A DNA stretch of 44,263 nt from the NCBI GenBank assembly GCA_029038705.1, contig GCA_029038705.1_4346.1. The stretch is one strand, 5' to 3'. The notes beneath the pieces were generated by a model. The model did not search any database. It had not been told where the DNA came from and saw only the letters and a program-made list of their open reading frames with translations. Made by a program: the position numbers and the translations under genes. Of the stretch, positions 4,069-38,997 are shown in pieces. Position 1 is the first letter of the stretch. Each line of letters starts with the position of its first letter. The stretch comes from a phage.

Positions 4069-4426
4069 GAGAATAGTTACGTTGCCGTTGTGATTCTTCG
4101 GGGAGGGTTGTGCCTTTATTCTTATTACTTGGTAACTAAAGGGCAGGCTTAAGCCTGCCCAATAATCGTTACATTTTTACGGTTGCGAATCTACGGCACA
4201 TTAAGAAACAGTATATATTTCAGCGGGTTACTTCTTTAAATGAGATTTAGATACACTTATCCTTAAACCCCAAGGCAAGCATCTCAGCTGTCTGGGAGGG
4301 GTTGACGAATCCCTCGGGGAGGGTTCGTCAACTCCGTAATATATACAAGTCCCAAAACCATTATACAAACATGTGTCAAGAACTTTCAATAACATTTTTG
4401 TAAAGATTAAATATTACAGAGATTGG

Positions 4427-4455
4427 TTGCTTTTACATTCCCGCTATCCTATACT
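4427..4455 (+). promoter_or_regulatory. Sigma70-like promoter for the rightward operon
   Basis: TTGCTT, 17 nt, TATACT, about 30 nt upstream of the ATG at 4487. Confidence 0.45.
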
Positions 4456-4486
4456 CAGTTTCACCAAACAAACAGGAGATATAAAA

Positions 4487-4669
4487 ATGTCGCATTATAT
4501 GACGCAGAATGAAGTAGCTGAACGTATCGGGGTGACACGTCAGACAATTAATAACTGGTTGCGCAGCGGCAAATTCCCTGACTGCTGTATTAAGGTTATG
4601 GGCCGCCGTTTACCGGGAACATTTGACCGTAATAAAGTCGAAGCATGGATTAAGGAGAACGTGAAATGA
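4487..4669 (+). CDS. Small HTH DNA-binding protein (AlpA/MerR-excisionase-like fold)
   Basis: MSHYMTQNEVAERIGVTRQTINNWLRSGKFP is a helix-turn-helix signature. AGGAGA sits 7 nt upstream; the track's longer ORF from 4373 has no RBS. Confidence 0.6.
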   Translation: MSHYMTQNEVAERIGVTRQTINNWLRSGKFPDCCIKVMGRRLPGTFDRNKVEAWIKENVK

Positions 4670-4956
4670 AAGGCGTAATTTTCCACAATAAAGCAGAAAA
4701 CGAAGTGTATATGGTTCACTCCGTGGCAGGAGAGTTCGCTTTATGCTTCAATATCTCTTGCCATCTTGATACCTACCGGCCTTTCTGCGTAGAAACAGAA
4801 ATGAAGCTAATTAGCTTACGCCAACTAAGCACCATGTCGGCATCGCTTAACGTAAGAGATAATCTCGAGTATATCGACTTCTATTTCGGCGATGATTTGG
4901 TCGAGGAATATTTTGAAGAGTATAAAAATTTGCTGGAAGGGTTGGCTAAACGGTAA
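4666..4956 (+). CDS. Hypothetical protein
   Basis: 96 aa ORF; ATGA overlap with the upstream gene. Confidence 0.5.
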   Translation: MKGVIFHNKAENEVYMVHSVAGEFALCFNISCHLDTYRPFCVETEMKLISLRQLSTMSASLNVRDNLEYIDFYFGDDLVEEYFEEYKNLLEGLAKR

Positions 4957-5025
4957 AAAGAAACCCCAACGCAAGAACGTCGGGGCCAAAGCACAAATCA
5001 TCAAAGTAAGCACAAGGATTATACA

Positions 5026-5154
5026 ATGACGAAGTTAATAGTTCCACAGCTGCGCCGACAGAAACACGGCGCCGATTTCTTCGCGCCGGTAAAGATGAAC
5101 CGCGCAATGCGCCGTATGCAGGAAGCCTTAGAACGTGCGGAGAAAAAGAAATGA
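5026..5154 (+). CDS. Hypothetical small basic protein
   Basis: 42 aa ORF (MTKLIVPQLRRQKHG...), AAGGA upstream; ATGA overlap with the next gene. Confidence 0.35.
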   Translation: MTKLIVPQLRRQKHGADFFAPVKMNRAMRRMQEALERAEKKK

Positions 5155-7373
5155 ATATTGTTTTTGCAACGCTGCGTAACACATTCGATAAAAACCCTGT
5201 AGCGCGTGAAATGCCGCTGGAGCAGTTTGTCGAGTATGTCTGCGATACATCGAAGCGTTTATCCGTGGACCCGTCATGGACTAAGGAAGAGTACGACGCT
5301 GCCAAGATTAAACAGAAAGCTATTGCGCCTGTTGGTGGTCGCCGTAAAAACGCTATCCTGGAAGACAGTGTGGTTAAGTTCGATTTCGACCATCTCAACC
5401 GTACTCAGTACCGCGACCTGACACGCAAATTCAAGAACGCGCCGTTCTTCAATATTCTGCACACAACGGCATCGCATCAGCACGCATGTAAAAACGGAGA
5501 TTACGCTTTCCGCGTTCTGGTTCCAGCTCGCACGCCGTTTAACTCTAACGACGCGTGGATGGTGCAACGTGCTATTTGTGCAGAGTTAGAAATAGACGAA
5601 GCGTTGCGCGACCACTGCACAGAAGACGGCAACCGCCTTATCTACCTGCCGCATAAAGAGTCGAAGATAACGGTTACAGAAGGGCGTGTTATCCGTGCTG
5701 AGCGGTACATCAAGAAAGCCGAAGAGATGGGGTTGCGTAAGCGTGAGGCTAAAACACTTGCCGCTGATGAGCATGGGCTTAACGCGGATATAGCACACTT
5801 CTGCGAAGCCGAGCTTGGCCTTGACGCTTTATCTTCCGGGCGCGGGTACGAAGTGCCATGCCCTAACGAACATCTGCATACAGGCAAGGGCTCCACCAGC
5901 ATAATGCTCGACGGTAAAGAAGTGCGCTTTGTCTGCCAGCATACAAACAACGGCGCTTGCACCGAGCTTAACCGTAGGCAGCATTTGGCCCTGCGTATGT
6001 GTGGCCTACCCGACGAGCTTAACATAGATAAGCAACCTATCAGCATTAACAGCATTCGTGCGGCTCTGCCTGATTTACCGGAAGAAGAGATTGAAGAACT
6101 ACACCGCACAGAGAACGAGGACCCAGTAACTTGCAGCCTCGACGACCTGGAAGACGACGAGGACTCAGAGGAGGACGAGTTACCGGAGCCGGTAAAGGCT
6201 GATTTCGTCGTTGAGGGGTACATGCCGTCGGATTGTATCTGGGATATCGTCGGGGAATCTGGCACGTACAAATCGTTCTATACGCTGGGGATGATGTACC
6301 TCAGCGCCGCCGGGTACAGGTTTGCGGGGGCGGATACCCAGCGTTGCCACCATTTCTATATTGATGGTGAGGGTGGCGCAGCTACACGCACCCGTATTGA
6401 TGCACTAGCGGCTAAATATGGCGGGGAAGGTAAAGATTATGTACACGTCATCGATATGGGCGAAGTCGGCAAACTTAAAAGCCTGATTAAGTTAATGCGC
6501 GAAACTGCTGGCGACGAGCCAATTGGCATGGTTGCGTTCGACACCCTTAACCAGACCCTGGCACTGACGATTGATAAGTTCGACGAGAACAGTTCATCAA
6601 CAGCAATCGGCATGGGTAAAGTTATCGCCATTCTGAAAGAAGTACGCGATGCAACTAAAGCCGCAGTAGGCGTTGTCCACCATACGCCGAAGGGTGGAAA
6701 GAAAGCACGCGGCAGTGGGGCGCTGTATGCGGGTGTTGACGTGGAACTGACAATCGAACGTGCAACCGACCGTCAGATAAACGTATATCACTCGAAATTC
6801 AAGCACGGGCCTCAGCAGAAGACGGTTGGCATGGTGCTGGAGTCGGTACAGTTCCGTGAAGCGCCGCCGCCTAAAGAATACCGAGCGGTTGAGTTCCTGG
6901 GTAGCACAGAGGAATACGGCACAATCGTAAACCTGGACCTGCCTGAACCACACAAGGCGCTTGTGTTGATGCCGTGGGGTTTCGAGCCGTTCAAAACTGA
7001 CGAGGAGAAAGAGCGGGAAGAAGGGTTGACGAAAGAAGGTAAGCAAAAAGTAAAGGAAGAAGTTAAACGCGGCAGGGATGAAGTAAGGAAGGAGTCAATA
7101 CTTTCGGCACTGGAAGACCTGCAACAGTCAGATGACACAGGTCGCGGTTTTACTCAGCAGCAGATAGTGGCTCGTTCCGGTGACTTCTCTGTGACTAACA
7201 CCCATCTTGATAAAATGTTGAAAGATGGAGAACTAATGCTTGGTTGCGATGCTAACGGCGAAGTAGTACCGAGAACATATCGTATACCCGAAAGAATAGG
7301 TGATAGATTAAGGCCGAAGACACTATACGAACCAAATGAGATGCTGGTGGTGACAGAGGAGGATTTGGAATAG
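5151..7373 (+). CDS. Replicative primase-helicase-like protein (N-terminal primase-like region, Cys/His cluster, C-terminal RecA/DnaB-type P-loop ATPase)
   Basis: 740 aa. Walker A-like GESGTYKS, Walker B-like VAFDTL, Cys/His cluster CPNEHLHTG...CQHTNNGAC, and a C-terminal acidic/basic tail. Domain assignment is by eye. Confidence 0.65.
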   Translation: MNIVFATLRNTFDKNPVAREMPLEQFVEYVCDTSKRLSVDPSWTKEEYDAAKIKQKAIAPVGGRRKNAILEDSVVKFDFDHLNRTQYRDLTRKFKNAPFFNILHTTASHQHACKNGDYAFRVLVPARTPFNSNDAWMVQRAICAELEIDEALRDHCTEDGNRLIYLPHKESKITVTEGRVIRAERYIKKAEEMGLRKREAKTLAADEHGLNADIAHFCEAELGLDALSSGRGYEVPCPNEHLHTGKGSTSIMLDGKEVRFVCQHTNNGACTELNRRQHLALRMCGLPDELNIDKQPISINSIRAALPDLPEEEIEELHRTENEDPVTCSLDDLEDDEDSEEDELPEPVKADFVVEGYMPSDCIWDIVGESGTYKSFYTLGMMYLSAAGYRFAGADTQRCHHFYIDGEGGAATRTRIDALAAKYGGEGKDYVHVIDMGEVGKLKSLIKLMRETAGDEPIGMVAFDTLNQTLALTIDKFDENSSSTAIGMGKVIAILKEVRDATKAAVGVVHHTPKGGKKARGSGALYAGVDVELTIERATDRQINVYHSKFKHGPQQKTVGMVLESVQFREAPPPKEYRAVEFLGSTEEYGTIVNLDLPEPHKALVLMPWGFEPFKTDEEKEREEGLTKEGKQKVKEEVKRGRDEVRKESILSALEDLQQSDDTGRGFTQQQIVARSGDFSVTNTHLDKMLKDGELMLGCDANGEVVPRTYRIPERIGDRLRPKTLYEPNEMLVVTEEDLE

Positions 7374-7400
7374 GTAAAAAGAAAGGGGCGTTACGCCCCT
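7373..7400 (-). terminator. Terminator between the converging primase-helicase and XRE genes
   Basis: Hairpin AGGGGCG-TTAC-GCCCCT; minus strand is followed by UUCUUUUUACC. Overlaps the XRE stop codon. Confidence 0.5.
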
Positions 7401-7606
7401 TCACCTAGCGCCAGCCACTTGGCGTCTACTTCCAGCACTTCCGCCAGTTTAAACAGCGTTGCCGGGCGTACGTCCTGAGTTACCCCGAGTGCAAGCTGGT
7501 TAATCGCGCCCTGGGAAACGCCGGCCAGAACAGCCAGACGGCGCTGGGAGATACCGAGTTCTTTACGGCGTTGCTCTACACGGATGCCTAGTTCAGATGG
7601 TTGCAT
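7391..7606 (-). CDS. XRE-family (Cro/CI-type) HTH transcriptional regulator
   Basis: 71 aa; ELGISQRRLAVLAGVSQGAINQLALG is the XRE helix-turn-helix pattern. Divergent from the flanking plus-strand genes. Confidence 0.8.
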   Translation of the reverse strand: MQPSELGIRVEQRRKELGISQRRLAVLAGVSQGAINQLALGVTQDVRPATLFKLAEVLEVDAKWLALGEGA

Positions 7607-7670: not shown

Positions 7671-7699
7671 TTGACATGTGAATAGTTCGCTATTATAGT
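7671..7699 (+). promoter_or_regulatory. Sigma70-like promoter (TTGACA-N17-TATAGT) with embedded AATAG-N4-CTATT palindrome
   Basis: TTGACATGTGAATAGTTCGCTATTATAGT; drives the gene at 7728. Confidence 0.6.
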
Positions 7700-7727: not shown

Positions 7728-7955
7728 ATGAACACAATCACTGGGGCCATAGCTAAAGGTTTTCGAGCAATTTTCGGCGCTCCGCAAGAAGTGTGCACAA
7801 AACATAAATTTGTACTTTCTTGCGTAGTAGGGGATGAGTTTGATGGGTTCGATAAACTTGTTGTCTGTGACCATTGCGGGCAAGAAGCTATTCAACACTC
7901 AAACGGTAAATTTGAACTAATAGACGATAGCCTTACTGAAGGCGACGGTGAGTAA
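7728..7955 (+). CDS. Hypothetical protein (possible Cys-containing zinc-binding motif)
   Basis: 75 aa; CTKHK...CDHCG; GAGAGGGG RBS upstream. Confidence 0.5.
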   Translation: MNTITGAIAKGFRAIFGAPQEVCTKHKFVLSCVVGDEFDGFDKLVVCDHCGQEAIQHSNGKFELIDDSLTEGDGE

Positions 7956-7979
7956 CTTACACAAACAGGAGAGAAACAA

Positions 7980-8480
7980 ATGTTAGAGAAATTCTTAGTA
8001 TTGCTGGAACGTTTCGTAGTTGCACATGAACTGATTGCCGCGAACAGTGCGAAACAAGTTGTTCAGGTTGCCACGCCGCTGGAAGTAGAGACGGTATCGT
8101 ACACCAAAGAAGCGGTAGCTGAGTGCGCTGAAGAAGCAACAAAAGAAATCCCGGTTGAAGGTGAAGACGTAGTTGACACTAAACCGGCGGAGGAAGAGAA
8201 GCCAAAACGCAAGCCGCGTAAAGCTAAAGTAGAGGAACCTGCGCCAGAACCGGAAGAAGAGAAAGAAGAAGTCGATTACAAGTCTCTGCGTGACCAGATT
8301 CAGGCCATCGACGATGCAATTAATGAAGGTCCTAGCGATGCCGCGTGCGACGATTCTGATGAACTGCTGGAAGAGTTCACTGGTAAGAAAATGAAGATTG
8401 CAGCGATTAAAGACGAAGACCTGGCTGAATACCTGGAACGCTTGACAGCAATCAAGAACAAGTATTTCGAAGAAGAATAA
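7980..8480 (+). CDS. Hypothetical highly acidic protein with a short Lys/Arg-rich insert
   Basis: 166 aa; long D/E runs (EEEKPKRKPRKAKVEEPAPEPEEEKEE, DDSDELLEEF, KYFEEE). Confidence 0.55.
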   Translation: MLEKFLVLLERFVVAHELIAANSAKQVVQVATPLEVETVSYTKEAVAECAEEATKEIPVEGEDVVDTKPAEEEKPKRKPRKAKVEEPAPEPEEEKEEVDYKSLRDQIQAIDDAINEGPSDAACDDSDELLEEFTGKKMKIAAIKDEDLAEYLERLTAIKNKYFEEE

Positions 8481-8487
8481 TTATCTG

Positions 8488-8510
8488 GCGGCCTTCGGGC
8501 CGCTTTAACT
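8488..8510 (+). terminator. Rho-independent terminator
   Basis: GCGGCC-TTCG-GGCCGC followed by TTTAACT. Confidence 0.5.
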
Positions 8511-8523
8511 GAGGGTCGTAATA

Positions 8524-8739
8524 ATGAGTAACGTATACAAAGTAATAAACGAACAAATAGTTGTAGAAATAAGTGACTCATATGTGGGTTGTCAGCAATT
8601 CTTTGTTTTGAATGGTGCGTGGCGCGGGACTCTTGACTATGCCGCTGGCGAATATTGGGCGGACATGTACCCAACCGATAAAACGGCGGTACATACAATT
8701 CGTCCCGCCGTTAAAGGTGAATTTGCGCCGTACTACTGA
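8524..8739 (+). CDS. Hypothetical protein
   Basis: 71 aa ORF. Confidence 0.5.
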   Translation: MSNVYKVINEQIVVEISDSYVGCQQFFVLNGAWRGTLDYAAGEYWADMYPTDKTAVHTIRPAVKGEFAPYY

Positions 8740-8750
8740 GGGTCGGAATT

Positions 8751-8954
8751 ATGGCTATTTTAGCTAAGAAAAGTGGTCTTATGATTTCTGGCAGCGTTGT
8801 CGCTGAAAATGATTTGGTTTACGTATTTCAGGCGGTAGACAACAAACACCCTACGACGGTCAAGAAGGCCAGCAAAGTTGAGAAGGTTTTCGACGGCGAT
8901 TTTTCTATTGACGATGTTTTCACGTGGATTAATTCTGCGAGGGTAAGGAAATGA
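8751..8954 (+). CDS. Hypothetical protein
   Basis: 67 aa ORF. Confidence 0.5.
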   Translation: MAILAKKSGLMISGSVVAENDLVYVFQAVDNKHPTTVKKASKVEKVFDGDFSIDDVFTWINSARVRK

Positions 8955-9223
8955 TTTACCAACTCTACCGCGCCGTCGACAGGCGGGACAACACAGAGGC
9001 ACTATGGCTGTTGCGTGCGCCGTCCGGAGCGCACCAGATGGAAGAGATGGCTTACTTAGGCAAAGTACCGCGGCCTAAAGATATAGGCCGTCACGTGTCA
9101 CAGATTAAGCGCACGACATTCGCCAAACCAGACTTTTATGTCTTTGAGTCGATGTATGGGTGGGCTATGCACTGCGAACATAAGACGCGACATTTAATCG
9201 ACCAGTGGGAGAGCAGGGTATGA
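8951..9223 (+). CDS. Hypothetical protein
   Basis: 90 aa ORF; ATGA overlap. Confidence 0.5.
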   Translation: MIYQLYRAVDRRDNTEALWLLRAPSGAHQMEEMAYLGKVPRPKDIGRHVSQIKRTTFAKPDFYVFESMYGWAMHCEHKTRHLIDQWESRV

Positions 9224-9369
9224 CAAGGTACGCGATAATTGTAGAAATAGACGGTAAAGACCAGGAACACAGCCGCTACGCACGTTTGGACGAAGCCCAG
9301 TACATCTTCTACACATTCGGCTTCGCACGCAGTTTCACTAATGCGCGTATTGTGGAGATTGCAGAATGA
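9220..9369 (+). CDS. Hypothetical small protein
   Basis: 49 aa ORF, translationally coupled on both sides. Confidence 0.35.
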   Translation: MTRYAIIVEIDGKDQEHSRYARLDEAQYIFYTFGFARSFTNARIVEIAE

Positions 9370-9524
9370 CGAACCGTAAAGCGCGACTTCTCTTTATTAA
9401 ATGTCACCAGCCTTTTCGAGTAAGCAACTCGACTTGGCTGATTATATTCAACCGTAGCGGTGACACGTGCGCCTACAAGCGCAAAACGCGTAAAGTTAAA
9501 TGGGGTGGGAGTTTAAGAGCATGA
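9366..9524 (+). CDS. Hypothetical small protein
   Basis: 52 aa ORF, ATGA-coupled on both sides. Confidence 0.35.
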   Translation: MTNRKARLLFIKCHQPFRVSNSTWLIIFNRSGDTCAYKRKTRKVKWGGSLRA

Positions 9525-10762
9525 AACTAAAAGAACGAGGCGGCAATAATGATGTACACGCCTTACTGTCACCGTCAGGCGCTAAAAAGTGGCTGTCATG
9601 CGCTGCGTCGCTGGCGTGTGAAAAAGATATCCCTAACACGTCGGGTAAAGCCGCTGTATCAGGAACCGCCATGCACACCATAGCTGAGGTCCATCTCAAC
9701 GCCTATATACGCGGCACTGCGTTGCCGTTGGAGCGTGAAGTCGGCGCTTACGTGCTGGACGAGGGTAAAGGCCAGATTAAGGCGCTAATTAGCCAGATGA
9801 AAGGCGCGGTACTGATTACGGCTGACATGATTGAGCAGGTGCGCAAGTACACCGACTACTGCAAAGCGATTATCGACGTAGCGACTTACGCCAAGCTGGA
9901 AATGCGGGTAAATCTTACTGAGGTATTGCATCCGGGTTACGAAGGCGTTGAGACGTTCGGAACCGCTGACCTTGTTGCCGTTCAGGAACTGGCGAACACT
10001 GACGAGCATATGCTCATTATCGGCGACCTGAAAACAGGACGGCATCATGTCGAAGCGAAAGAAAACAAGCAGCTTATGCTCTACGCTCTCGGTGTTTACC
10101 GCCGACTCAAGAGACGTTATAACATATCAGTAGTGCGCCTGGTCATCTTCCAGCCGTACGCCGGGGGCGCGTCGGAGTGGGACATCTCGGTTGAAGGTCT
10201 GGAACTGTTCGCTAAGTTCGCACAGAAACGCGCACTGTTAGCCCTTGATGCGTATTTCCGAGGCAAGAAGAACCTGAAAGCGTCGGACTTTAAGCCGTCT
10301 GTCGACGGTTGTCAGTGGTGTCGGTTCTCTGAACAGTGCGCAGCGCGTACAAAGACGGTTAATTCTGTACTTGCCGAAGAACTGGAGGACGACTTTGCGC
10401 TGGAACTTACGCCGGAGCAACTCGTAGCTGAATATGAGAAGTTGCCGTTGTTGCGCCAGCACATCGATAAGGTCGAAAAAGCTATGGCTGCTGCGTTGCA
10501 TTCCGGTAAGAAAGTGCCAGGGTACAAGCTGGTGGAAGGTCGCCCAGGTAATCGTGCGTGGAAAGACGCAGAGAAAGTAGCAGAACTCTACGGCGACAAG
10601 CTGACTAAAGAAGTGCTCCTGACGCCGACCGAAGCGGTTAAAGTAATACCAGAAGAAGAACTGAAAGACTTCATCACACGTAAGCCGGGGGCGCCATGCG
10701 TCACAACAGCGGACGACAAACGTCCTGAGTGGAATCAGGTTAGTGAAGAAGATTTGGAATAA
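9521..10762 (+). CDS. PD-(D/E)XK exonuclease (RecB/Cas4-like, DUF2800-type) with C-terminal cysteine cluster
   Basis: LLSPSGAKKWLSC N-terminal motif, GTADLV...IIGDLKTG...QLMLYALG nuclease core, C-terminal CQWCRFSEQC. Start is probably the ATG at 9521 (GGGAG upstream) rather than 9500. Confidence 0.7.
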   Translation: MKLKERGGNNDVHALLSPSGAKKWLSCAASLACEKDIPNTSGKAAVSGTAMHTIAEVHLNAYIRGTALPLEREVGAYVLDEGKGQIKALISQMKGAVLITADMIEQVRKYTDYCKAIIDVATYAKLEMRVNLTEVLHPGYEGVETFGTADLVAVQELANTDEHMLIIGDLKTGRHHVEAKENKQLMLYALGVYRRLKRRYNISVVRLVIFQPYAGGASEWDISVEGLELFAKFAQKRALLALDAYFRGKKNLKASDFKPSVDGCQWCRFSEQCAARTKTVNSVLAEELEDDFALELTPEQLVAEYEKLPLLRQHIDKVEKAMAAALHSGKKVPGYKLVEGRPGNRAWKDAEKVAELYGDKLTKEVLLTPTEAVKVIPEEELKDFITRKPGAPCVTTADDKRPEWNQVSEEDLE

Positions 10763-10766
10763 AGTG

Positions 10767-10795
10767 TTGACACCTGAATAGTTAGCTATTATAGT
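10767..10795 (+). promoter_or_regulatory. Sigma70-like promoter (TTGACA-N17-TATAGT) with AATAG-N4-CTATT palindrome
   Basis: TTGACACCTGAATAGTTAGCTATTATAGT; upstream of the SSB-like gene. Confidence 0.6.
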
Positions 10796-10850
10796 TCTAA
10801 TCACTGGCCGGGCAGCTCCCGGAGTAAACTGAAAACTGAGGAATCGAGAA

Positions 10851-11477
10851 ATGGGACTGAAATTAAATCTGCGTAAAGTAAACACTGCTTGGGTTAACGT
10901 ATTCGAACGCGAAAAAGACCGTGAAAATGATGATGGTTCAATCACTAAAGGTCAGTACAGCGCGACTATTATCCTGCCGTCCGACCACGCGCAAATCGAC
11001 GCGCTCTACGACACCGTTTACGCTGTAGTTGAAGAAGCGTTAGGTGCAGCCGCCGCCGAGAAGTGGATGAAGTCCAACTACGGCGAAGGTAAGCACATGG
11101 ATAAATGTGCAATTAAAGACATTGCCGAGCGTGACAATCCGTTTGAAGACTTCCCGGAAGGCTTCTACTTCAAAGCGAAGGCACAGAAGCAGCCGCTGAT
11201 TGTAACCTCTAAAAAAGGTGAGACTCAGGTAGAACAGGACTTCAATGTAGACGGTGAACAGATTGAAGGTGAACAGGTTTACAGCGGATGCTTAGCTAAC
11301 GTAAGCGTTGAAATCTGGTTCAGCCAGAAATACAAAGTCCTCGGCGTTAACCTGCTGGCGATTAAATACGTTGGCGAAGGCAAAGCGTTCGGCGGTTCTA
11401 AAGTCGCTGCGAGCGTCAATGACCTGGAAGACGACGAAGAAGATGAAGCACCGCGCCGCGAACGTCGCCGCCGCTAA
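10851..11477 (+). CDS. Single-strand DNA-binding-like protein (DUF2815-type) with acidic C-terminal tail
   Basis: 208 aa; sits between the DUF2800-type nuclease and the DNA polymerase; C-terminus DLEDDEEDEAPRRERRRR. Confidence 0.55.
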   Translation: MGLKLNLRKVNTAWVNVFEREKDRENDDGSITKGQYSATIILPSDHAQIDALYDTVYAVVEEALGAAAAEKWMKSNYGEGKHMDKCAIKDIAERDNPFEDFPEGFYFKAKAQKQPLIVTSKKGETQVEQDFNVDGEQIEGEQVYSGCLANVSVEIWFSQKYKVLGVNLLAIKYVGEGKAFGGSKVAASVNDLEDDEEDEAPRRERRRR

Positions 11478-11496
11478 TATCTGAATCAATTTAACT

Positions 11497-11522
11497 AAGG
11501 CCCTTCATTGGGCCTTTTTACT
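11497..11522 (+). terminator. Rho-independent terminator
   Basis: AAGGCCC-TTCATT-GGGCCTT followed by TTTACT. Confidence 0.5.
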
Positions 11523-11536
11523 AGGGGTCAAAAATA

Positions 11537-13708
11537 ATGAGTTACCTGTTCTTAGACTTTGAAACATTCTCAGAAGCCGATTTGAAGAAAGTCGGTTCTT
11601 ACGCTTACGCCGAACACCCGTCAACCGAAGTGCTTATCTGTACATATGCTTTTGACGACGAACCTGTGCGGGTATGGGATTGCACCGACGGCAGCGACAT
11701 GCCGGGGGATTTACACCGCGCACTGCGCCGCCTTGTTAAGCCCAACAGCCGCATCAAGATGGTGTGGCACAACGGTGGACTTTTCGATCGCCTAATCATG
11801 AAACACTGCTGGGACTTTGATATTCCGGTAAGTAACACCATTGATACTATGATTTGGGCGTTCCGTCACGCGCTGCCGGGTTCTCTTGATGCGCTGTGCG
11901 AAGTGCTGGGCGTGTCTGCAGACAACGCGAAAGATAAACGCGGCAAGGCTCTGATTAAGCGTTTCTCTAAACCGACGCCGAAGAACTACAAAATCCGCCG
12001 CTACACCGCAGAAACTCACCCTGACGAGTGGGCGATGTTCATCAGGTACGCCGTGAGCGACATCACTGCGATGCGTGAAGTCTTCCATAAGCTGCCGCGT
12101 TGGGGTAACTCCGAGTTCGAAGACCGTGTACTGGAACTTGACCAGTTAATCAACGACCGCGGATTTAAGGTTGACGTCGCACTGGCGGAAGCCGCGATTG
12201 AAGCCGTAGAGAAGCACAAGGCACAGTTACAGGAAGAAGCTCAACGTAAATACGGCGGCTCGCTTACCGGTAAAGACTTCCTTCCGATTCTGCGTGAACT
12301 TGCGCCCGCGCACCGCATACACAATGCACAGAAGTCGACGCTTAACGACCTGTTGGCAGATGATGATTTACCGGACGACGCCCGGATGATTATCGAAATG
12401 CGCCTCGGGGCCGCGTCAACAGCGTCCACGAAATATAACCCGCTGCTGTTAGGCCGCTCGTCGGACGACCGACGCCGCGGTTGTATCCAGTACGGTGGGG
12501 CAAAGCGTACGTTACGGTTCGCGGGTAAAGGCTTCCAGCCACAGAACCTGGCGCGTGGGTACTATCACGATGATGAACTGGATAAAGGCATTTCAGCGTT
12601 ACTTAAGGGCCGGGCGCACCGCCGATTTGACGTAGCCAAGCTGACGGCATCTACCGTTCGTAGCTGCATTATACCGGAAGCTGGACATAAGTTTGTCGTC
12701 GCCGATTACTCTAACGTTGAAGGCCGGGGGCTTGCGTGGCTGGCGGGCGAAGACGATTTAATCGAAGTATTTGTAAACGGGGTTGATGTGTATAAGAAAC
12801 TAGCATCAACGGTGTTTAACGTTGCTTATGAAGCCGTAACAAAGGACCAAAGACAAATAGCCAAAGCAATGGTTCTGGGCCTCGGCTACGCGGGGGGTGT
12901 AGGGGCTTTCGTCACGTTTGCTAAAAACTTAGGTCTTGATTTGAATGACATGACTAACACTTTAGACGGTACATTCCCGGACCATATTTGGGCCGCTACC
13001 GCACGCGGATACGAATGGGCGCGTATTCAGGAAGCCAAGCGACCGCCACGTCCTGGTGAAAAAGATGACCGACCATCGTATATTCTTGATAAAAAAGTGT
13101 GGCGTACCTGTGACGCTTTAAAACGTATGTACCGAGAAGCTAATCCTGCAATAGTCCAATTCTGGCGTGACATTGAAGATGCGGCTATGGCGGCTATCCG
13201 TAATCCCGGTAAAGAGTTCACCGCAGGTCCCCGCGGCGTTAAGTTTTCGCGCAACGTAGAGACAGACAACAACGGCAACAAAGTCGCCGGTTGGTGGTTG
13301 CGCATGACGTTGCCGTCGGGCCGCGTTATGTCTTATCCAGGTGTCGGGTTAAGCGTGTCGAAAGAGACAGACGAAGATGGAAAAGTGTCTACTAACGTGC
13401 GCATCAAGTACCAGGGGGAGAACCAGTTAACCCGTCAGTGGGGCTTCCAGTACACCTACTCTGGTAAACTGGTGGAAAACTGCACTCAGGCGCTGTGCCG
13501 TGATTTGCTGGCTAACGCGCTGCTGAACGTAGAGGCAAACGGCTACCCGATTGTGCTCCATGTTCACGATGAAATTATCTGCGAGACACCGGATTTACCA
13601 GAATACAATGTCGCAGAGCTTGAGCGGTTGATGTGCGAATTACCAGAATGGGCCGAAGGGTTCCCTCTTGTAGCGGAAGGTCAGGAGTTAAAACGTTATG
13701 CTAAGTAA
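11537..13708 (+). CDS. DNA polymerase, family A, with 3'-5' exonuclease domain
   Basis: 723 aa. N-terminal LFLDFETFS (exo I), motif B-like KAMVLGLGYAGG, motif C-like VHDEIICE. Confidence 0.9.
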   Translation: MSYLFLDFETFSEADLKKVGSYAYAEHPSTEVLICTYAFDDEPVRVWDCTDGSDMPGDLHRALRRLVKPNSRIKMVWHNGGLFDRLIMKHCWDFDIPVSNTIDTMIWAFRHALPGSLDALCEVLGVSADNAKDKRGKALIKRFSKPTPKNYKIRRYTAETHPDEWAMFIRYAVSDITAMREVFHKLPRWGNSEFEDRVLELDQLINDRGFKVDVALAEAAIEAVEKHKAQLQEEAQRKYGGSLTGKDFLPILRELAPAHRIHNAQKSTLNDLLADDDLPDDARMIIEMRLGAASTASTKYNPLLLGRSSDDRRRGCIQYGGAKRTLRFAGKGFQPQNLARGYYHDDELDKGISALLKGRAHRRFDVAKLTASTVRSCIIPEAGHKFVVADYSNVEGRGLAWLAGEDDLIEVFVNGVDVYKKLASTVFNVAYEAVTKDQRQIAKAMVLGLGYAGGVGAFVTFAKNLGLDLNDMTNTLDGTFPDHIWAATARGYEWARIQEAKRPPRPGEKDDRPSYILDKKVWRTCDALKRMYREANPAIVQFWRDIEDAAMAAIRNPGKEFTAGPRGVKFSRNVETDNNGNKVAGWWLRMTLPSGRVMSYPGVGLSVSKETDEDGKVSTNVRIKYQGENQLTRQWGFQYTYSGKLVENCTQALCRDLLANALLNVEANGYPIVLHVHDEIICETPDLPEYNVAELERLMCELPEWAEGFPLVAEGQELKRYAK

Positions 13709-13829
13709 ACTGATTATCGCGTTACTGGCGGGATTCGCCGCCGGTGTCTACTGTCACGAGGGCCAATACGGAATGATGGTTGCCATATTGGGAATGTTCA
13801 TCGCAATTTATCTATGGGTGCTGGAATGA
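13698..13829 (+). CDS. Hypothetical small membrane protein
   Basis: 43 aa, almost entirely hydrophobic; overlaps the polymerase stop. Confidence 0.3.
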   Translation: MLSKLIIALLAGFAAGVYCHEGQYGMMVAILGMFIAIYLWVLE

Positions 13830-13915
13830 AAATCTACTGGTTCTATGAAGAAGACTGTCGAATCTGTCCGCGCTGCGGGATTGAGCACACGAAACGTGAG
13901 GGGTGCGTATTATGA
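13826..13915 (+). CDS. Hypothetical tiny Cys-rich protein
   Basis: 29 aa (MKIYWFYEEDCRICPRCGIEHTKREGCVL); ATGA-coupled. Confidence 0.25.
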   Translation: MKIYWFYEEDCRICPRCGIEHTKREGCVL

Positions 13916-14409
13916 AAGCACCAAGTGACGATATAAAAGATTTTCTGTCATACGACCCGGATACCGGGATATTTAAATGGGTCAAGCACAGATGCCAGAC
14001 CGCGAAACCCGGAGATGTTGTTACATACAAGGACCGTAAAGGGTACATATTGTTAGGATGGAGTAGGGTGTATTACCGCGCACACAGGCTGGCGTGGTGG
14101 TGGGTGTACGGAGAGATGCCAACTAAGCAAATAGACCATATTAACGGCATACGGGACGATAACCGGATTTGTAACCTACGGCTTGCGGATGAATTTCAAC
14201 AGAACCATAACCGCAAGACCCCAGTTACGAACACCAGCGGCGTGAAAGGGGTTAACTGGAGTAAGCCTCATAATGCTTGGTGTGCTCGAGTTGCTTTTAA
14301 AGGTACACGCTATCAGATTGGGTATTTCCAGAACCTAAATGAAGCAGAGGAATCCCTGAGAGAATTTAGGGTAAAACTGCACGGAGAGTTTTGCAACCAT
14401 GGCGACTAA
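13912..14409 (+). CDS. HNH homing endonuclease with AP2-like DNA-binding domain
   Basis: HRLAWWWVYGEMP...IDHINGIRDDNRICNLRL...NHN is the HNH motif; SGVKGVNWSKPHNAWCARVAFKGTRYQIGYF is AP2-like. Track start 13903 is GTG; ATG at 13912 has GAGGGG upstream. Confidence 0.8.
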   Translation: MKAPSDDIKDFLSYDPDTGIFKWVKHRCQTAKPGDVVTYKDRKGYILLGWSRVYYRAHRLAWWWVYGEMPTKQIDHINGIRDDNRICNLRLADEFQQNHNRKTPVTNTSGVKGVNWSKPHNAWCARVAFKGTRYQIGYFQNLNEAEESLREFRVKLHGEFCNHGD

Positions 14410-14686
14410 AGAGGGCCGCGTACAGAAATACGCAAAAGAGCAATTCGAGGCCATTGGCGGCCTCGTTCGTAAACTTTCGTACGAGGGGCGCTCCGGCGCC
14501 CCTGACCTGCTGGTAATTCTCCCCGGCGGCATCGTCTGGTTCGTCGAGGTGAAGAAAGACGAAAGCACGAAGCCTGACCCACACCAGTTACGAGAGCATG
14601 AGCGGATGCGTAAACGTGGTGCGAATGTTTTTGTCGTCGGGTCGTTCAAACAGGTTGACGACCTAATAGCGAACTATTATAGTTAG
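14399..14686 (+). CDS. VRR-NUC domain nuclease (PD-(D/E)XK)
   Basis: 95 aa; GAPDLLVILPGGIVWFVEVKKD matches the D-x(n)-E-x-K core. Confidence 0.7.
   Translation: MATKEGRVQKYAKEQFEAIGGLVRKLSYEGRSGAPDLLVILPGGIVWFVEVKKDESTKPDPHQLREHERMRKRGANVFVVGSFKQVDDLIANYYS
14655..14683 (+). promoter_or_regulatory. Sigma70-like promoter (TTGACG-N17-TATAGT) with AATAG-N4-CTATT palindrome, inside the 3' end of the VRR-NUC gene
   Basis: TTGACGACCTAATAGCGAACTATTATAGT. Confidence 0.55.
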
Positions 14687-14716
14687 CCCTACACCAACAA
14701 TATAAGGAATTGATAG

Positions 14717-14908
14717 ATGAAATACGAATATGACCGTAAACCAGCACGTGACATCGTACCTGGCGACATGATTTTCAACGTTAAGACCCGCCAGCCTGTT
14801 GCCGTTGATACGGTGTTCGTCGAGTCAAACGGTAAACTGGTTATCGAAGATGTAACAGGCAATGTTACAGCGTTCGGGCGTAAAGAGTTAGTTCTGGTGG
14901 CAAAATGA
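14717..14908 (+). CDS. Hypothetical protein
   Basis: 63 aa ORF with AAGGAA RBS. Confidence 0.5.
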   Translation: MKYEYDRKPARDIVPGDMIFNVKTRQPVAVDTVFVESNGKLVIEDVTGNVTAFGRKELVLVAK

Positions 14909-16329
14909 GTAAGTTTCAAAGGCGCGAATATCAGAAGCTCATGACTTCGTTCATGCTACAGCATCCGCGCTGTAATATCTGGTGCGGCATGGGAGGGGGC
15001 AAAACCTCCTCAACTATGTGGGTGCTTAATCGCCTGTTTCGCAACGGGCAGCTTACAGAAGATGACCGCGTGTTAATCCTCGCCCCGTTGCGTGTTGCAT
15101 CCGGTACGTGGCCCGCTGAACAAGAGAAATGGAACTTCCCCTGTCTGCGTGTCGTAGATGCTACCGGTTCAGAGAAGCGCCGCATCGCGGCGCTGGAGTC
15201 CGACGCTAACGTGGTGTGCACTAACTACGAAGTTATTGAGTGGCTGATTGACTACTATGGCAAAGATGACTGGCCTTTTACTGTTATCGTTGCCGATGAA
15301 AGCACGAAGCTTAAATCGTTTCGCAGCCGTTCTGGCGGCAGCAAGCGAGCAAAGGCGCTTAGTAAAGTGGCATTTGGCAAAGTTAAGCGTTTCATTAACC
15401 TGACTGGCACGCCGTCACCAAACGGCCTCAAGGACTTGTGGGGGCAGAACTGGTTTATCGACGCTGGCGAGCGACTCGGTTCATCGTACACAGCATTCAC
15501 CGACCGCTGGTTTAACTCGGTACAGAAAGGTAAATCGGCTATGGCGCGTGAATATCATGCGCGACCGGGTGCAGATAATGAGATTCATCAGAAGATGAAA
15601 GACATCAGCCTGACCATAGACCCTGCCGAGTGGTTTGGTTGTGAAGCGCCTGTTATCGTACCGGTGGAAATAGACCTGCCGAAGAAAGCGCGTCAGGCGT
15701 ACATAGATATGGAGGAGAAGTTATTCGCAGAACTGGAGAGCGGGGAAGTTGAAGCGGCTAACGCTGCGGCGAAGACCTCAAAGTGCTTGCAGATTGCATC
15801 TGGTGCTGTATATGTATCCGGGCCAGACGGCGAAGCAACCAAAGAATGGGAGAAAGTGCACGACACGAAACTGGATGCGCTGGCGTCCATTGTCGAGGAG
15901 TTACAGGGTGCGCCGTTACTGGTAGCCTATCAGTTCAAGCACGAACTGGAGCGCGTCCTTAAGCGATTCCCACAAGCACAGGCCTTTGCCAAAGGCGCCA
16001 GGGGTAATAAGCAGATGGAAGCATGGAACCGCGGGGAAATAGAGATTTTGTGCGTCCACCCTGCGTCCGCCGGGCATGGTTTGAATTTACAGGACGGGGG
16101 TCATCATCTGGCGTTCATCTCGCAAGGCTGGAACCTTGAGCACTATTTGCAGGTTGTTGAGCGCATAGGCCCAGTCCGCCAGAAACAGGCGGGTCACGAG
16201 CGCCCGGTGTTCCTTTATCACATCGTTGCTAAAGACACTCTGGACGAGGTTGTCGCCGCGCGTACCGACGAGAAGAAATCGGTACAGGAAGAGTTGCTTA
16301 ATTACATGAAGAGACGAGGTAAGAAATGA
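14905..16329 (+). CDS. SNF2-family DNA helicase/translocase
   Basis: 474 aa; Walker A-like GMGGGKT, DEXH-like VIVADESTKLK, C-terminal helicase domain. Confidence 0.8.
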   Translation: MSKFQRREYQKLMTSFMLQHPRCNIWCGMGGGKTSSTMWVLNRLFRNGQLTEDDRVLILAPLRVASGTWPAEQEKWNFPCLRVVDATGSEKRRIAALESDANVVCTNYEVIEWLIDYYGKDDWPFTVIVADESTKLKSFRSRSGGSKRAKALSKVAFGKVKRFINLTGTPSPNGLKDLWGQNWFIDAGERLGSSYTAFTDRWFNSVQKGKSAMAREYHARPGADNEIHQKMKDISLTIDPAEWFGCEAPVIVPVEIDLPKKARQAYIDMEEKLFAELESGEVEAANAAAKTSKCLQIASGAVYVSGPDGEATKEWEKVHDTKLDALASIVEELQGAPLLVAYQFKHELERVLKRFPQAQAFAKGARGNKQMEAWNRGEIEILCVHPASAGHGLNLQDGGHHLAFISQGWNLEHYLQVVERIGPVRQKQAGHERPVFLYHIVAKDTLDEVVAARTDEKKSVQEELLNYMKRRGKK

Positions 16330-16841
16330 TGGATTTCGAAGAGTTTCTACTTAAAGCTCATCTGCTGGCGCGTGGGTTTGACGCTGACCGTCTCCAGGTA
16401 GTCTTAGCCCCTGGAGTAGCTACGTTTTACCTGTGGGGGTTTGACGGTAGGCTTCGCGGATACCAGCATTACAAACCACATGCCGAAAAGAACTGTAAAA
16501 ACCCTAAAGACGCGCGGTACTTTACCAGAACAACAAGGCCGTGTTTATGGGGGCTTGAGTATTTGCCGGAAAGCGGGGTGGTATTTGTTACCGAAAGCAT
16601 ATTCAAAGCCGTAGCCTTGATGAATTGCGGGTTCAATGCTGTAAGCGCACTGGGGTCAAATATATCAACAGACCTACGGCAGCAAATGTCACTTTTGCCG
16701 TATGACTGGGTGTGCGCTGGCGACAATGATAAAGCTGGATTAAAGTTCAGCAAAACATTCACCAGAGGATTTGTATCTAACGACCTTGATGAACTTTGTG
16801 AAGAAGAAATAACGTATCTTGCGAGGAAATTTACCAGATGA
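16326..16841 (+). CDS. Toprim-domain protein (DnaG-type primase catalytic core-like)
   Basis: 171 aa; VVFVTESIFKAV...VCAGDNDKAG matches the Toprim E...DxD pattern. Confidence 0.6.
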   Translation: MMDFEEFLLKAHLLARGFDADRLQVVLAPGVATFYLWGFDGRLRGYQHYKPHAEKNCKNPKDARYFTRTTRPCLWGLEYLPESGVVFVTESIFKAVALMNCGFNAVSALGSNISTDLRQQMSLLPYDWVCAGDNDKAGLKFSKTFTRGFVSNDLDELCEEEITYLARKFTR

Positions 16842-16975
16842 ACATCATAGCCCCGATTCCAGCATTGCAAAAACGTATCAAGGAACTCGAAGAAGAGGTT
16901 CTACGACTACGGCAACAAAGAGACGCCGCTAATGCGCAACTGGCGTTTGTACTGGAGAAGTTATCAGAAGAGTAG
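16838..16975 (+). CDS. Hypothetical small coiled-coil protein
   Basis: 45 aa; ATGA-coupled to the Toprim gene. Confidence 0.3.
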   Translation: MNIIAPIPALQKRIKELEEEVLRLRQQRDAANAQLAFVLEKLSEE

Positions 16976-17008
16976 AGAAAAGGCCCCGTTTGGGGCCTTA
17001 GTTTTTAG
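16976..17008. terminator. Bidirectional terminator between the replication and tail modules
   Basis: AAGGCCCC-GTTT-GGGGCCTT, flanked by T-rich sequence on both strands. Confidence 0.6.
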
Positions 17009-37544: not shown

Positions 37545-37647
37545 AAAAATAATATCTCAGGGAATTTTTTCTTATTGCGGTGCGATGTCTTGCTGTGGTA
37601 CATGTATATACACAATCTTTATACTAGAAGAAGCGGAGGGTATTTTA

Positions 37648-38997
37648 ATGGGGTCCAGACGTTTAACTGAAGAAGATGTAAACCTGAGACTGGCGTCACG
37701 GGGTATAGTAGTAATTGAGTATGCAGGCCACTCTAAACTTAAGTCTAAATTCCGCTGCCGTAGTGGCCATGTGTGGGAGACAAAGGCCAATACCGTCCTA
37801 AACGGTCATGGTTGCCCCCAATGCTACGCTGCGGAAAAACGGGCGAAAGTAACAGAGTGGCCTAATGGGGTTGAATGCCTTAATTACGCAGGTGCTGTAA
37901 GTGGGAAATCAACGTTCAGATGTAAATGCGGGTTCGTCTGGTCCGCTACCGGCAGCGACATTTTAAGGGGTAAAAGTCATTGCCCGAATTGCAGCACTAA
38001 CAGAAAAAGGCTCGAGATCGGAGAAATAGAGGAAAGGTTACGCGGCACTGGTTTTGAACTGGTGTCTTATTCAGGGGATATCTGCCGTGCGCCATCGACA
38101 CTGAGGTGTCAAAAAGGCCATGAATGGGCCTCTACGCTTGGTAACATTTTTCAGGGTAGAGGGTGCCCGCGGTGCGCGTCGTTCGGGCGTAGTAAAGTGG
38201 AGGATGAAGTCTGTGAATTTCTCGATAGCATGGGGGTGGAATATCATCGGAATGATAGAAGTCTTATCCACCCAAGAGAGATAGATATTTTAATACCGCA
38301 ACATAATCTGGCGATAGAAATAAACGGCCTGTACTGGCACAGTGAAGCTGCCGGGAAGGGGAGAAAGTATCACATGGAGAAAAGAGTCGCCGTTGAGGAA
38401 AGAGGGTTCAGGCTCCTGTCAATAAGGGATGAGCTATGGCTGCATAAAAAAGAAATAATAAAGAAAATAATCGGCCATTCCGTCGGCGTCTCTTCTTTGC
38501 GAGTTTTCGCCCGCAAATGCCATGTAAAAGAGATTAACAAAATATGTGCAGAGCGTTTCCTGGAGGAGAACCACATTCAAGGATTCCGTAACTCGACGAG
38601 GTATATCAGCCTCGTTTATGAAGAAAAGATTGTTGCGGTAATGACGCTGACGTGTAGAAAAGGTGAATGGGAGCTTGTGCGGTACGCTACGTCGTGTTCG
38701 GTGGTAGGCGGGCTGTCGAAGCTATGGGCCTATGCCGTGCGCCGTTATAGCATCACCGACGGTTTTACCTACACTGACCGGGATTTATTTACCGGAGAAT
38801 CATACCTATCAGCGGGGTTTAAAAAGGCTTCTGTGAGATGTGGATTCCGCATCGTCGTAAACAATGCGACTAAAACAGAATCACGGCAAAAATGGAACAA
38901 AGCGCCAGAGGGGCTTACACAGTCGGAATGGTACGCTGCGGAAGGTGTATCCCGCATATGGGATAGCGGACAAGAGAAATTGGTATGGAATAAGTGA
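37648..38997 (+). CDS. Stand-alone nuclease with repeated zinc-ribbon modules and a PD-(D/E)XK-like core (homing-endonuclease-like)
   Basis: Three repeats of a C-x-x-G/C-H...CPxC module (CRSGHVWET..CPQC; CKCGFVWSA..CPNC; CQKGHEWAS..CPRC), then REIDILIP...AIEINGLYWHS. Start is probably the ATG at 37648 (GGAGGG RBS), not 37585. Confidence 0.55.
   Translation: MGSRRLTEEDVNLRLASRGIVVIEYAGHSKLKSKFRCRSGHVWETKANTVLNGHGCPQCYAAEKRAKVTEWPNGVECLNYAGAVSGKSTFRCKCGFVWSATGSDILRGKSHCPNCSTNRKRLEIGEIEERLRGTGFELVSYSGDICRAPSTLRCQKGHEWASTLGNIFQGRGCPRCASFGRSKVEDEVCEFLDSMGVEYHRNDRSLIHPREIDILIPQHNLAIEINGLYWHSEAAGKGRKYHMEKRVAVEERGFRLLSIRDELWLHKKEIIKKIIGHSVGVSSLRVFARKCHVKEINKICAERFLEENHIQGFRNSTRYISLVYEEKIVAVMTLTCRKGEWELVRYATSCSVVGGLSKLWAYAVRRYSITDGFTYTDRDLFTGESYLSAGFKKASVRCGFRIVVNNATKTESRQKWNKAPEGLTQSEWYAAEGVSRIWDSGQEKLVWNK

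Follow-up and report, generated by a model that had tools for sequence, protein, structure and literature searches.

Phages of the genus Kagunavirus (subfamily Guernseyvirinae) and their relatives have published genome records in which the replication genes already carry labels, namely exonuclease/DUF2800, single-stranded DNA (ssDNA)-binding protein, DNA polymerase, endonuclease, helicase, DNA primase and replicative helicase-primase. In mobile genetic elements more widely, primase-helicases, PrimPol-PV1 among them, are composed of an archaeo-eukaryotic primase (AEP) domain, a PriCT or zinc-binding part, a RepA-like or VirE ATPase and a C-terminal region (PMC5862659). Here we analyzed a 44,263-nt stretch of phage DNA (GenBank assembly GCA_029038705.1, contig GCA_029038705.1_4346.1), the whole of which is called the window below, and asked which of three proteins in it is the likely primase: a 740-aa primase-helicase, a SNF2-family ATPase, or a 171-aa Toprim protein that amounts to a stand-alone RNA-polymerase domain of the DnaG/T7 type (RPD). 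A sequence-only reading of the window had counted three separate candidates for priming and unwinding and found it unclear which of them primes. The count stands insofar as two distinct primase types and two NTPases of the “helicase” kind are present, but the three are not equivalent, and judged from their sequences they are one core primase-helicase, one fork-remodeling ATPase and one optional second primase-like enzyme. We consider it probable, with moderate confidence, that the AEP domain of the 740-aa protein serves as the principal primase, that the SNF2 ATPase and a VRR-NUC nuclease take part in fork or branch processing, and that the RPD is an optional accessory. Domains were assigned by Pfam, PHROG and NCBIfam/PDB profile searches, with bit scores read against the cut-off of each family. 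The three candidate genes are the following.

5151 to 7373, + strand: 740-aa primase-helicase (AAA_25, 63 bits; phrog_3228).
14905 to 16329, + strand: SNF2-family ATPase of 474 aa, a minimal Snf2 core (SNF2-rel_dom, 48.7 bits; phrog_62, 1e-165).
16326 to 16841, + strand: 171-aa RPD, an N-terminal subdomain plus Toprim (Toprim_2, 23.1 bits; phrog_849, 3e-48).

The region from 9500 to 16841 gave megablast matches to 455 phage records. The top matches were the Escherichia phages vB_EcoS_XY1, JSSK01 and vB_VIPECOTH07, at 93–94% identity with more than 90% of the query covered. vB_EcoS_XY1 and vB_VIPECOTH07 (XY1 and TH07 below) belong to Kagunavirus, and the window is itself a Kagunavirus, unremarkable within a phage genus that has been sampled well. 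Compared with the published modules of XY1, TH07, EM1 and Jerseyvirus jersey, the gene set and gene order are the same, at ~88–94% nucleotide identity. Because its genes are labeled in the published records of these relatives, the replication module is already known and annotated; it is a standard, previously annotated Kagunavirus DNA-replication block with nothing unusual overall.

The 740-aa protein is laid out as an AEP domain (residues ~60–190), a Cys/His cluster (C237, H243, C262 and H264), an acidic linker (~328–345), AAA_25 (from 345 to 516 and beyond) and a C-terminal region ending in EEDLE. From the sequence we conclude that its N-terminal domain is a predicted AEP primase domain with the catalytic motifs intact. 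Among 11 N-domain sequences at 18–30% identity, residues K52, R64, S73, D78, D80, T106, R121, D154 and P167 are invariant. The N-domain alignment was compared by hhalign with the All3500 AEP family (20 sequences, the AEP domains being taken from supplementary file 3 of Kazlauskas et al. 2018; PMC5862659), and the match reached 93.7% (E = 1.9e-7) in local and 95.4% in global mode. The controls stayed far lower: 0.2% for the reversed template, 0.9% for an unrelated Toprim profile and at most 0.2% for 20 column-shuffled queries.

The AEP motifs I, II and III/IV of the 740-aa protein line up with those of All3500. Motif I (hhhDhD/E), the metal-binding motif, reads VVKFDFD, and both of its aspartates, D78 and D80, are invariant in the 11 divergent homologs and in register with All3500. 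Motif II (sxH), which binds the nucleotide and in some AEP families has Q, Y or R in place of the histidine, lies in HTTASHQH, a region in register with the motif II histidine of All3500, where T106 is invariant; H109 is kept in the J-type, Paenibacillus, APSE and Heliusvirales sequences and H111 is invariant in the K-type sequences (both types are described below). In motif III (hD/E followed by R..P(G)), D154 and P167 never vary, R162 is kept in most sequences, and hhalign places D..NRLIYLP of the 740-aa protein in register with D..sRVMRLPG of All3500. The architecture is likewise that of the AEP fusions of the PrimPol-PV1 kind (All3500 and PrimQH families; PMC5862659). There are differences as well: motif II is of the form TT-x-S-H, as opposed to the S-G-x-G-x-H type, and the domain matches no Pfam model. 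The profile comparison places it in the superfamily and not within one particular family. In the supplementary files of PMC5862659, the names Salmonella, Enterobacteria or Escherichia phage, Edwardsiella, HK578 and APSE are absent. Distant homologs of the N-domain are fused to VapE/VirE in a Paenibacillus phage, a Heliusvirales phage and APSE-2. The first two of these fusions sit within a module of the polymerase/VRR-NUC/SNF2 type; in APSE-2, PriCT_2 stands between the N-domain and VapE/VirE, and a DUF2800 gene adjoins.

The C-terminal half of the 740-aa protein is a predicted hexameric helicase of the RepA/DnaB-like type (SF4, RecA fold). Its only Pfam match is AAA_25, at residues 345–516, with 63 bits against a cut-off of 27, and the Walker A and B sequences of the RepA-like domain, GESGTYKS and FD..N, are invariant. 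By profile, the nearest solved relative of this half is the RSF1010 RepA hexameric helicase (1g8y, E = 0.0034). The AAA_25 match, together with the AEP-type N-domain, agrees with the description of the gene at 5151–7373 as a large primase-helicase-like ATPase in the sequence-only reading. Matches of the C-terminal region to the BurrH repeat protein were discarded as repeat artifacts arising from a short helix-turn-helix (HTH)-like motif.

The N-terminus of the primase-helicase occurs in two forms that are homologous to each other (hhalign 96.9%). The K-type, with the C237/H243/C262/H264 cluster, is found in the window, Dhillonvirus, Salmonella phage SE1 and eiAU, and the J-type, without a Cys/His cluster, in TH07, XY1, EM1 and Jersey. 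The window thus differs from XY1, TH07 and EM1 in this part of the gene, over the following segment.

4670 to 6131, + strand: mosaic segment, made up of the open reading frame (ORF) at 4666–4956 together with the first 327 codons of the primase-helicase gene (nucleotide comparison).

Within this segment nucleotide similarity to TH07, XY1 and EM1 is nil, and from 6132 on the identity is 94–99%. At the protein level the C-terminal parts of the window and TH07 primase-helicases are identical and the N-termini differ. The pattern reads as a K-type AEP and zinc module, along with the ORF at 4666–4956, being swapped for the J-type, the putative recombination breakpoint lying in the acidic linker at about codon 328.

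The RPD was described in the sequence-only reading as a short stand-alone Toprim protein, and the Toprim_2 and phrog_849 matches agree. It had also been conceived that the ORF could be a degenerate fragment, which is excluded by the conserved residues and by matches to primases over the full length. Among 14 homologs at 50–92% identity, 49 positions are invariant, including E90, D133, D135 and D153-L-D-E, and the RNA-polymerase domain is complete. Across 116 representatives of the family, E90 is kept in 99%, D133 in 90%, D135 in 92% and D153 in 90%, and the wider set of G45, Y49, [RK]64-Y65, G76 and these four acidic residues is kept at 85–100%. A profile of the 116 representatives matched residues 202–319 of E. 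coli DnaG (hhalign 96.2%, E = 2e-9), with E90 and D133/D135 lining up with the DnaG residues of motifs IV and V. In a structure search the best matches were primases across the entire length, and the Toprim-only RNase M5 matched over 88 residues only; the protein thus has the RNA-polymerase domain fold of an N-terminal subdomain followed by Toprim. The family profile searched against PDB sequences gave nothing useful; it was the structure search and hhalign that connected the family with primases.

In common with the T7 gp4 primase and bacterial DnaG, the RPD has the Toprim glutamate, the DxD motif, G-x-[LV]-x-G-[YF] and [RK]-Y. It differs from them in lacking the zinc-binding domain, the C-terminal helical subdomain and any helicase-binding or helicase domain, in being optional within its phage group, and in the primase “EGxxD” motif, where the aspartate is replaced by lysine in the RPD subfamily. 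A zinc-binding domain (CHC2 or Cys4) is absent from the RPD, which starts ~30 residues before the core and has no Cys/His cluster. A helicase-binding domain or helicase fusion is also absent, the protein ending ~15 residues past Toprim. An exhaustive profile search found 632 RPD clusters at 50% identity, in Guernseyvirinae, T5-like and jumbo phages. Since 114 of the 150 best representatives are 150–200 aa long, family members are little more than this domain, and among 17 longer members examined a Cys-rich extension was seen in one (P0085).

T7 and bacterial primases need a zinc-binding domain for template-directed initiation. This bears on the possibility that the RPD is the real lagging-strand RNA primase, with the AEP domain serving origin initiation or some other role and with RPD-less relatives recruiting host DnaG. 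The family does keep the catalytic residues E90, D133, D135 and D153, its [RK]-Y pair resembles DnaG motif III by eye, the fold is that of a full RPD, and the gene overlaps, at its start, the stop codon of a gene of the replication module. However, the RPD has neither the zinc-binding domain nor the helicase-binding domain expected of such an enzyme, and its distribution, given next, also speaks against this role.

The start codon of the RPD gene overlaps the stop codon of the SNF2 gene (ATGA), and the RPD stop codon is overlapped by the start of a small downstream ORF.

16838 to 16975, + strand: 45-aa coiled-coil ORF (ORF45), with a start codon that overlaps the stop of the RPD gene (ATGA).

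The RPD gene is kept in the window, XY1 and TH07, and EM1 is without it. No RPD homolog was found in the complete genomes of EM1 (a close Kagunavirus), Salmonella phage SE1 and Dhillonvirus SSL-2009a (hmmsearch --max, best E = 0.41–1.7), although all three carry the same replication module. When the 3′ end of the window SNF2 gene, the RPD gene and ORF45 were used together as a query, 703 phage records matched and at least 80% of the query was covered in 65 of them. In the other records, among the matches listed, the SNF2 end joins ORF45 with ~0–190 nt between them, a few carrying a homing-endonuclease gene there. ORF45 therefore persists 3′ of SNF2 with or without the Toprim gene. Several GenBank records call it “exonuclease subunit SbcD,” which looks like an annotation carry-over.

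In its tRNA region, phage T5 encodes a 172-aa protein (AAX12008, labeled “DNA primase”) with 48% identity to the RPD and with the same length and motifs; unlike the RPD gene, the small T5 gene sits outside the replication module. T5 also holds, in its replication block and beside a DnaB-like helicase, a canonical primase composed of zinc ribbon, DNAG_N and Toprim. The canonical primase matches Zn_ribbon_DnaG and the small paralog does not. The deletion strain T5 st0 lacks an 8.2-kb segment, and the small gene falls within it. The coexistence of the T5 homolog with a canonical primase and its deletion in T5 st0, together with the lack of an RPD in ~90% of related records and in very close relatives, argue against the RPD as the lagging-strand primase, and we regard that role as quite improbable. 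Instead, from its conservation and distribution, the RPD is best described as a second enzyme of the primase-like kind, apparently intact and yet optional. Many phages maintain it under selection, even though T5 st0 can dispense with it and most Guernseyvirinae have none.

Homologs elsewhere raise the possibility that the RPD is a non-replicative accessory enzyme, for RNA or for the conflict between host and phage, whose gene joined the replication operon at its end; it might, for example, make oligoribonucleotides without a template, act as a nuclease, or serve in tRNA/RNA-end metabolism. The patchy, moron-like distribution and the T5 copy in a dispensable tRNA region fit such an enzyme, as do the homolog located among nucleotide-metabolism genes on a 109-kb contig, the homolog of Vibrio phage F100 that overlaps a tRNA nucleotidyltransferase gene, and the rare fusions of RPDs to CCA-adding enzyme, cytidylyltransferase, Mom, GNAT plus Arr, and HAD domains. 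Nearly the whole family, moreover, is without a zinc domain. On the other hand, the best structural matches are full-length primases and RNase M5 aligns over the Toprim part only, the primase-type motifs of the N-subdomain are conserved, and the fusions, which were called in metagenomic data, may be artifacts. Furthermore, among 40–46-kb siphoviruses the RPD gene is always in the replication operon, directly 3′ of SNF2 with stop and start overlapping, and this group includes three further lineages at 50–62% identity. A non-replicative enzyme is thus possible but, in our judgment, unlikely.

For the family at large, we suggest tentatively, and with considerable doubt, that the bare zinc-less RPD is a widespread and dispensable phage accessory enzyme with a distinct activity, other than that of a replicative primase. 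One option for this activity is re-priming that needs no zinc and is coupled to the SNF2 translocase. An RNA/tRNA- or defense-related function is another, suggested by the placement in tRNA clusters and by fusion or adjacency to CCA-adding and nucleic-acid-modifying enzymes. Either way, the RPD is a natural experiment, a primase catalytic core without zinc finger or helicase anchor, and its function would reveal what a bare Toprim primase core does alone.

The missing zinc-binding domain could in principle be supplied in trans. Jumbo phages often pair a DnaG-like Toprim protein with a stand-alone primase zinc ribbon (PMC7824862), and a split primase of the same kind might arise here if the RPD worked with the Cys/His cluster of the 740-aa protein or with the product of a small ORF that encodes a zinc ribbon. 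The window offers two candidates, the C237/H243/C262/H264 cluster of the K-type 740-aa protein and a 75-aa Cys-rich ORF at 7728–7955. The cluster is excluded as a trans zinc domain, as the presence of the RPD is not correlated with it: TH07 and XY1 have an RPD with the cluster-less J-type, and SE1 and SSL-2009a have the cluster without an RPD. The 75-aa ORF has no Pfam match, and RPD-bearing TH07 has no annotated counterpart at its position. A primase-type zinc ribbon was not found in the window. Given the lack of correlation between RPD and cluster and the lack of a zinc ribbon in the window, the split-primase model is unsupported, and we consider it very improbable.

The question of which protein primes is thus narrower than it had appeared, because AEP motifs I–III are intact and fused to a RepA-like helicase in a gene that is present in every relative examined, because the Toprim gene is missing from most close relatives and its T5 homolog is dispensable, and because the SNF2 ATPase belongs to a translocase family and is a poor candidate for unwinding. 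SNF2-family enzymes are double-stranded DNA translocases, not strand-separating replicative helicases; for this reason the SNF2 ATPase is a poor replicative-helicase candidate, and it is unlikely to compete for that role.

Several observations weigh against the AEP domain as principal primase with an optional RPD beside it. The N-terminal 330 residues of the 740-aa protein matched nothing in the Pfam, NCBIfam and PDB sequence and HMM searches, and the AEP assignment accordingly depends on one profile-profile comparison together with motifs and architecture. A word-indexed homolog search with the N-domain, with and without the acidic linker, likewise returned almost no matches. The single-sequence AF2 model of the AEP domain was unusable (pLDDT 36.9). 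Absence of the RPD is no proof that the AEP domain primes, because RPD-less phages could use host DnaG. The adjacency of RPD and SNF2 in four lineages at 50–62% identity could point to a specific functional partnership rather than to a loose accessory. Finally, what the sequences show directly are the domain identities, the conserved motifs, which genes are present or absent and the promoter motif, and all enzymatic activities and the division of labor among the proteins are inferred from them.

Taking the AEP domain as the most likely principal phage primase, the locus would work as follows. A conserved replication-recombination cassette of Guernseyvirinae siphoviruses would provide the DUF2800 nuclease, a gp2.5-like SSB (ssDNA-binding protein), PolA, VRR-NUC and SNF2, with the primase-helicase gene placed apart from it. 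The AEP domain would be joined through the Cys/His cluster and acidic linker to the RepA-like, presumably hexameric helicase, and such a fusion would unite priming and unwinding in a single chain, like other fusions of AEP and helicase in mobile elements. SNF2 and VRR-NUC probably form a fork- or branch-processing pair and not a replicative helicase. The RPD, which would be transcribed from the third copy of a common promoter/operator, may be an optional accessory, most simply a second RNA primase or a re-priming activity, and not the essential primase. For annotation, calling the product of the 171-aa gene a “DNA primase” and that of the SNF2 gene a “helicase” probably misleads, and the predicted AEP-RepA fusion of 740 aa would be the real primase-helicase, with an N-terminal domain that lies beyond Pfam models.

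The common promoter/operator is a 29-nt motif present in three copies, the last of which precedes the genes ORF63, SNF2, RPD and ORF45.

7671 to 7699, + strand: promoter/operator motif copy 1, TTGACA-N4-AATAG-N4-CTATTATAGT (11 of 12 positions of the sigma-70 consensus; exact 29-nt match).
10767 to 10795, + strand: promoter/operator motif copy 2, in the gap that separates the nuclease gene from the SSB gene (29-nt motif match).
14655 to 14683, + strand: promoter/operator motif copy 3, within the final 32 nt of the VRR-NUC gene (10 of 12 consensus positions; one mismatch to the 29-nt motif).
14717 to 14908, + strand: conserved 63-aa ORF (ORF63; phrog_4879).
16980 to 16999, + strand: terminator-like hairpin with T-run, closing the ORF63-SNF2-RPD-ORF45 unit (sequence scan).

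Exactly three matches to the 29-nt motif occur in the window, all on the + strand, where 0.00 are expected by chance; generic sigma-70-like sites are not enriched (12 seen vs. 13.1 expected). Copy 3 reads TTGACG-17-TATAGT and is kept in EM1, Jersey, XY1 and TH07. The motif count and the conservation in four relatives exclude a chance match at 14655, and the internal promoter predicted at 14655–14683 within the VRR-NUC coding sequence is thereby upheld as a putative promoter. This copy heads the unit of the 63-aa ORF, SNF2, RPD and the 45-aa ORF, the last two junctions of which are ATGA overlaps. In all three copies the spacer contains the palindrome AATAG-N4-CTATT, abutting the −10 hexamer, which could be an operator for a phage HTH protein. 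Candidate HTH proteins are encoded at 7391–7606 on the minus strand (HTH_3) and at 4373–4669 (HTH_17). The 75-aa Cys-rich ORF, with cysteines C23, C32, C47 and C50, lies directly downstream of promoter copy 1; an ORF is annotated at its position in XY1.

The remaining genes of the module, upstream of the ORF63-SNF2-RPD-ORF45 unit, are listed below.

9521 to 10762, + strand: DUF2800 PD-(D/E)XK nuclease with a Cas4/AddB-like four-cysteine cluster and an EEDLE C-terminal tail (DUF2800, 233 bits; PDDEXK_1, 36.7 bits).
10851 to 11477, + strand: DUF2815/Enc34-type, gp2.5-like ssDNA-binding protein (Enc34_ssDNA-bd/DUF2815, 59.7 bits; phrog_112, gp2.5-like).
11537 to 13708, + strand: family-A DNA polymerase with 3′-5′ exonuclease (DNA_pol_A).
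13903 to 14409, + strand: HNH homing endonuclease, an insertion that separates the PolA gene from VRR-NUC (HNH_3, 46.6 bits; phrog_99, 4e-65).
14399 to 14686, + strand: VRR-NUC nuclease (phrog_93, 2e-33; phrog_5702 “Holliday junction resolvase,” 1e-19).

The module genes from 9521 to 16841 all lie on the + strand at the positions first proposed for them, and the domain scans agree with the functions that the sequence-only reading had assigned, apart from one detail of the SSB. The exonuclease with Cas4-like cysteines is supported by the PDDEXK_1 match and by residues invariant in six relatives (C27, C264-x2-C267-x5-C273, D150, D169-L-K171 and Q184..Y188), which give the Cas4/AddB sequence pattern of one N-terminal cysteine, CX2CX5C and PD-(D/E)XK motifs. 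For the SSB with an acidic tail, the protein type holds and the tail does so in part, as the acidic stretch NDLEDDEEDE is internal and the end of the protein is basic (PRRERRRR). Both the DNA_pol_A and the 3′-5′ exonuclease domains of the family-A polymerase were matched. The VRR-NUC nuclease is weak in Pfam (VRR_NUC, 18.6 bits, under the cut-off of 23.8) and clear in PHROGs, with phrog_93 at 2e-33. The SNF2 protein matched both lobes, SNF2-rel_dom above its cut-off of 24.9 and Helicase_C at 18.6 bits, under its own cut-off.

The HNH homing endonuclease gene at 13903–14409 had been missed earlier. Its 3′ end overlaps the start of the VRR-NUC gene by 11 nt. By comparison of annotations, the insertion ahead of VRR-NUC is common to the window and EM1 and absent from XY1 and TH07; the EM1 module has two further HNH genes beyond this one.

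The primase-helicase (7350–7370) and the DUF2800 nuclease (10742–10759) have in common an (E/D)(E/D)DL(E) tail, in the window EEDLE, that is kept across Kaguna-, Jersey-, SE1-, eiAU- and Dhillon-type phages. In the SSB the related NDLEDDEEDE is internal, and SNF2 and the RPD are without such a tail. These acidic tails recall the docking tails of T7 gp4 and gp2.5, an analogy that suggests a common binding partner.

Elsewhere, in Jerseyvirus jersey UPWr_S1, the PolA gene (7847–10945) encodes 1032 aa and the SNF2 gene (11539–14004) 821 aa, both ~300–350 codons longer than their counterparts in the window; the extra length suggests inteins or fused homing endonucleases. Beyond the replication module, at 37585–38997, the window encodes a protein of 470 aa that has zinc fingers of the DUF4379 treble-clef type (48.8 bits) and weak matches, below cut-off, to Vsr and MTES_1575 endonucleases, which may be another mobile nuclease.

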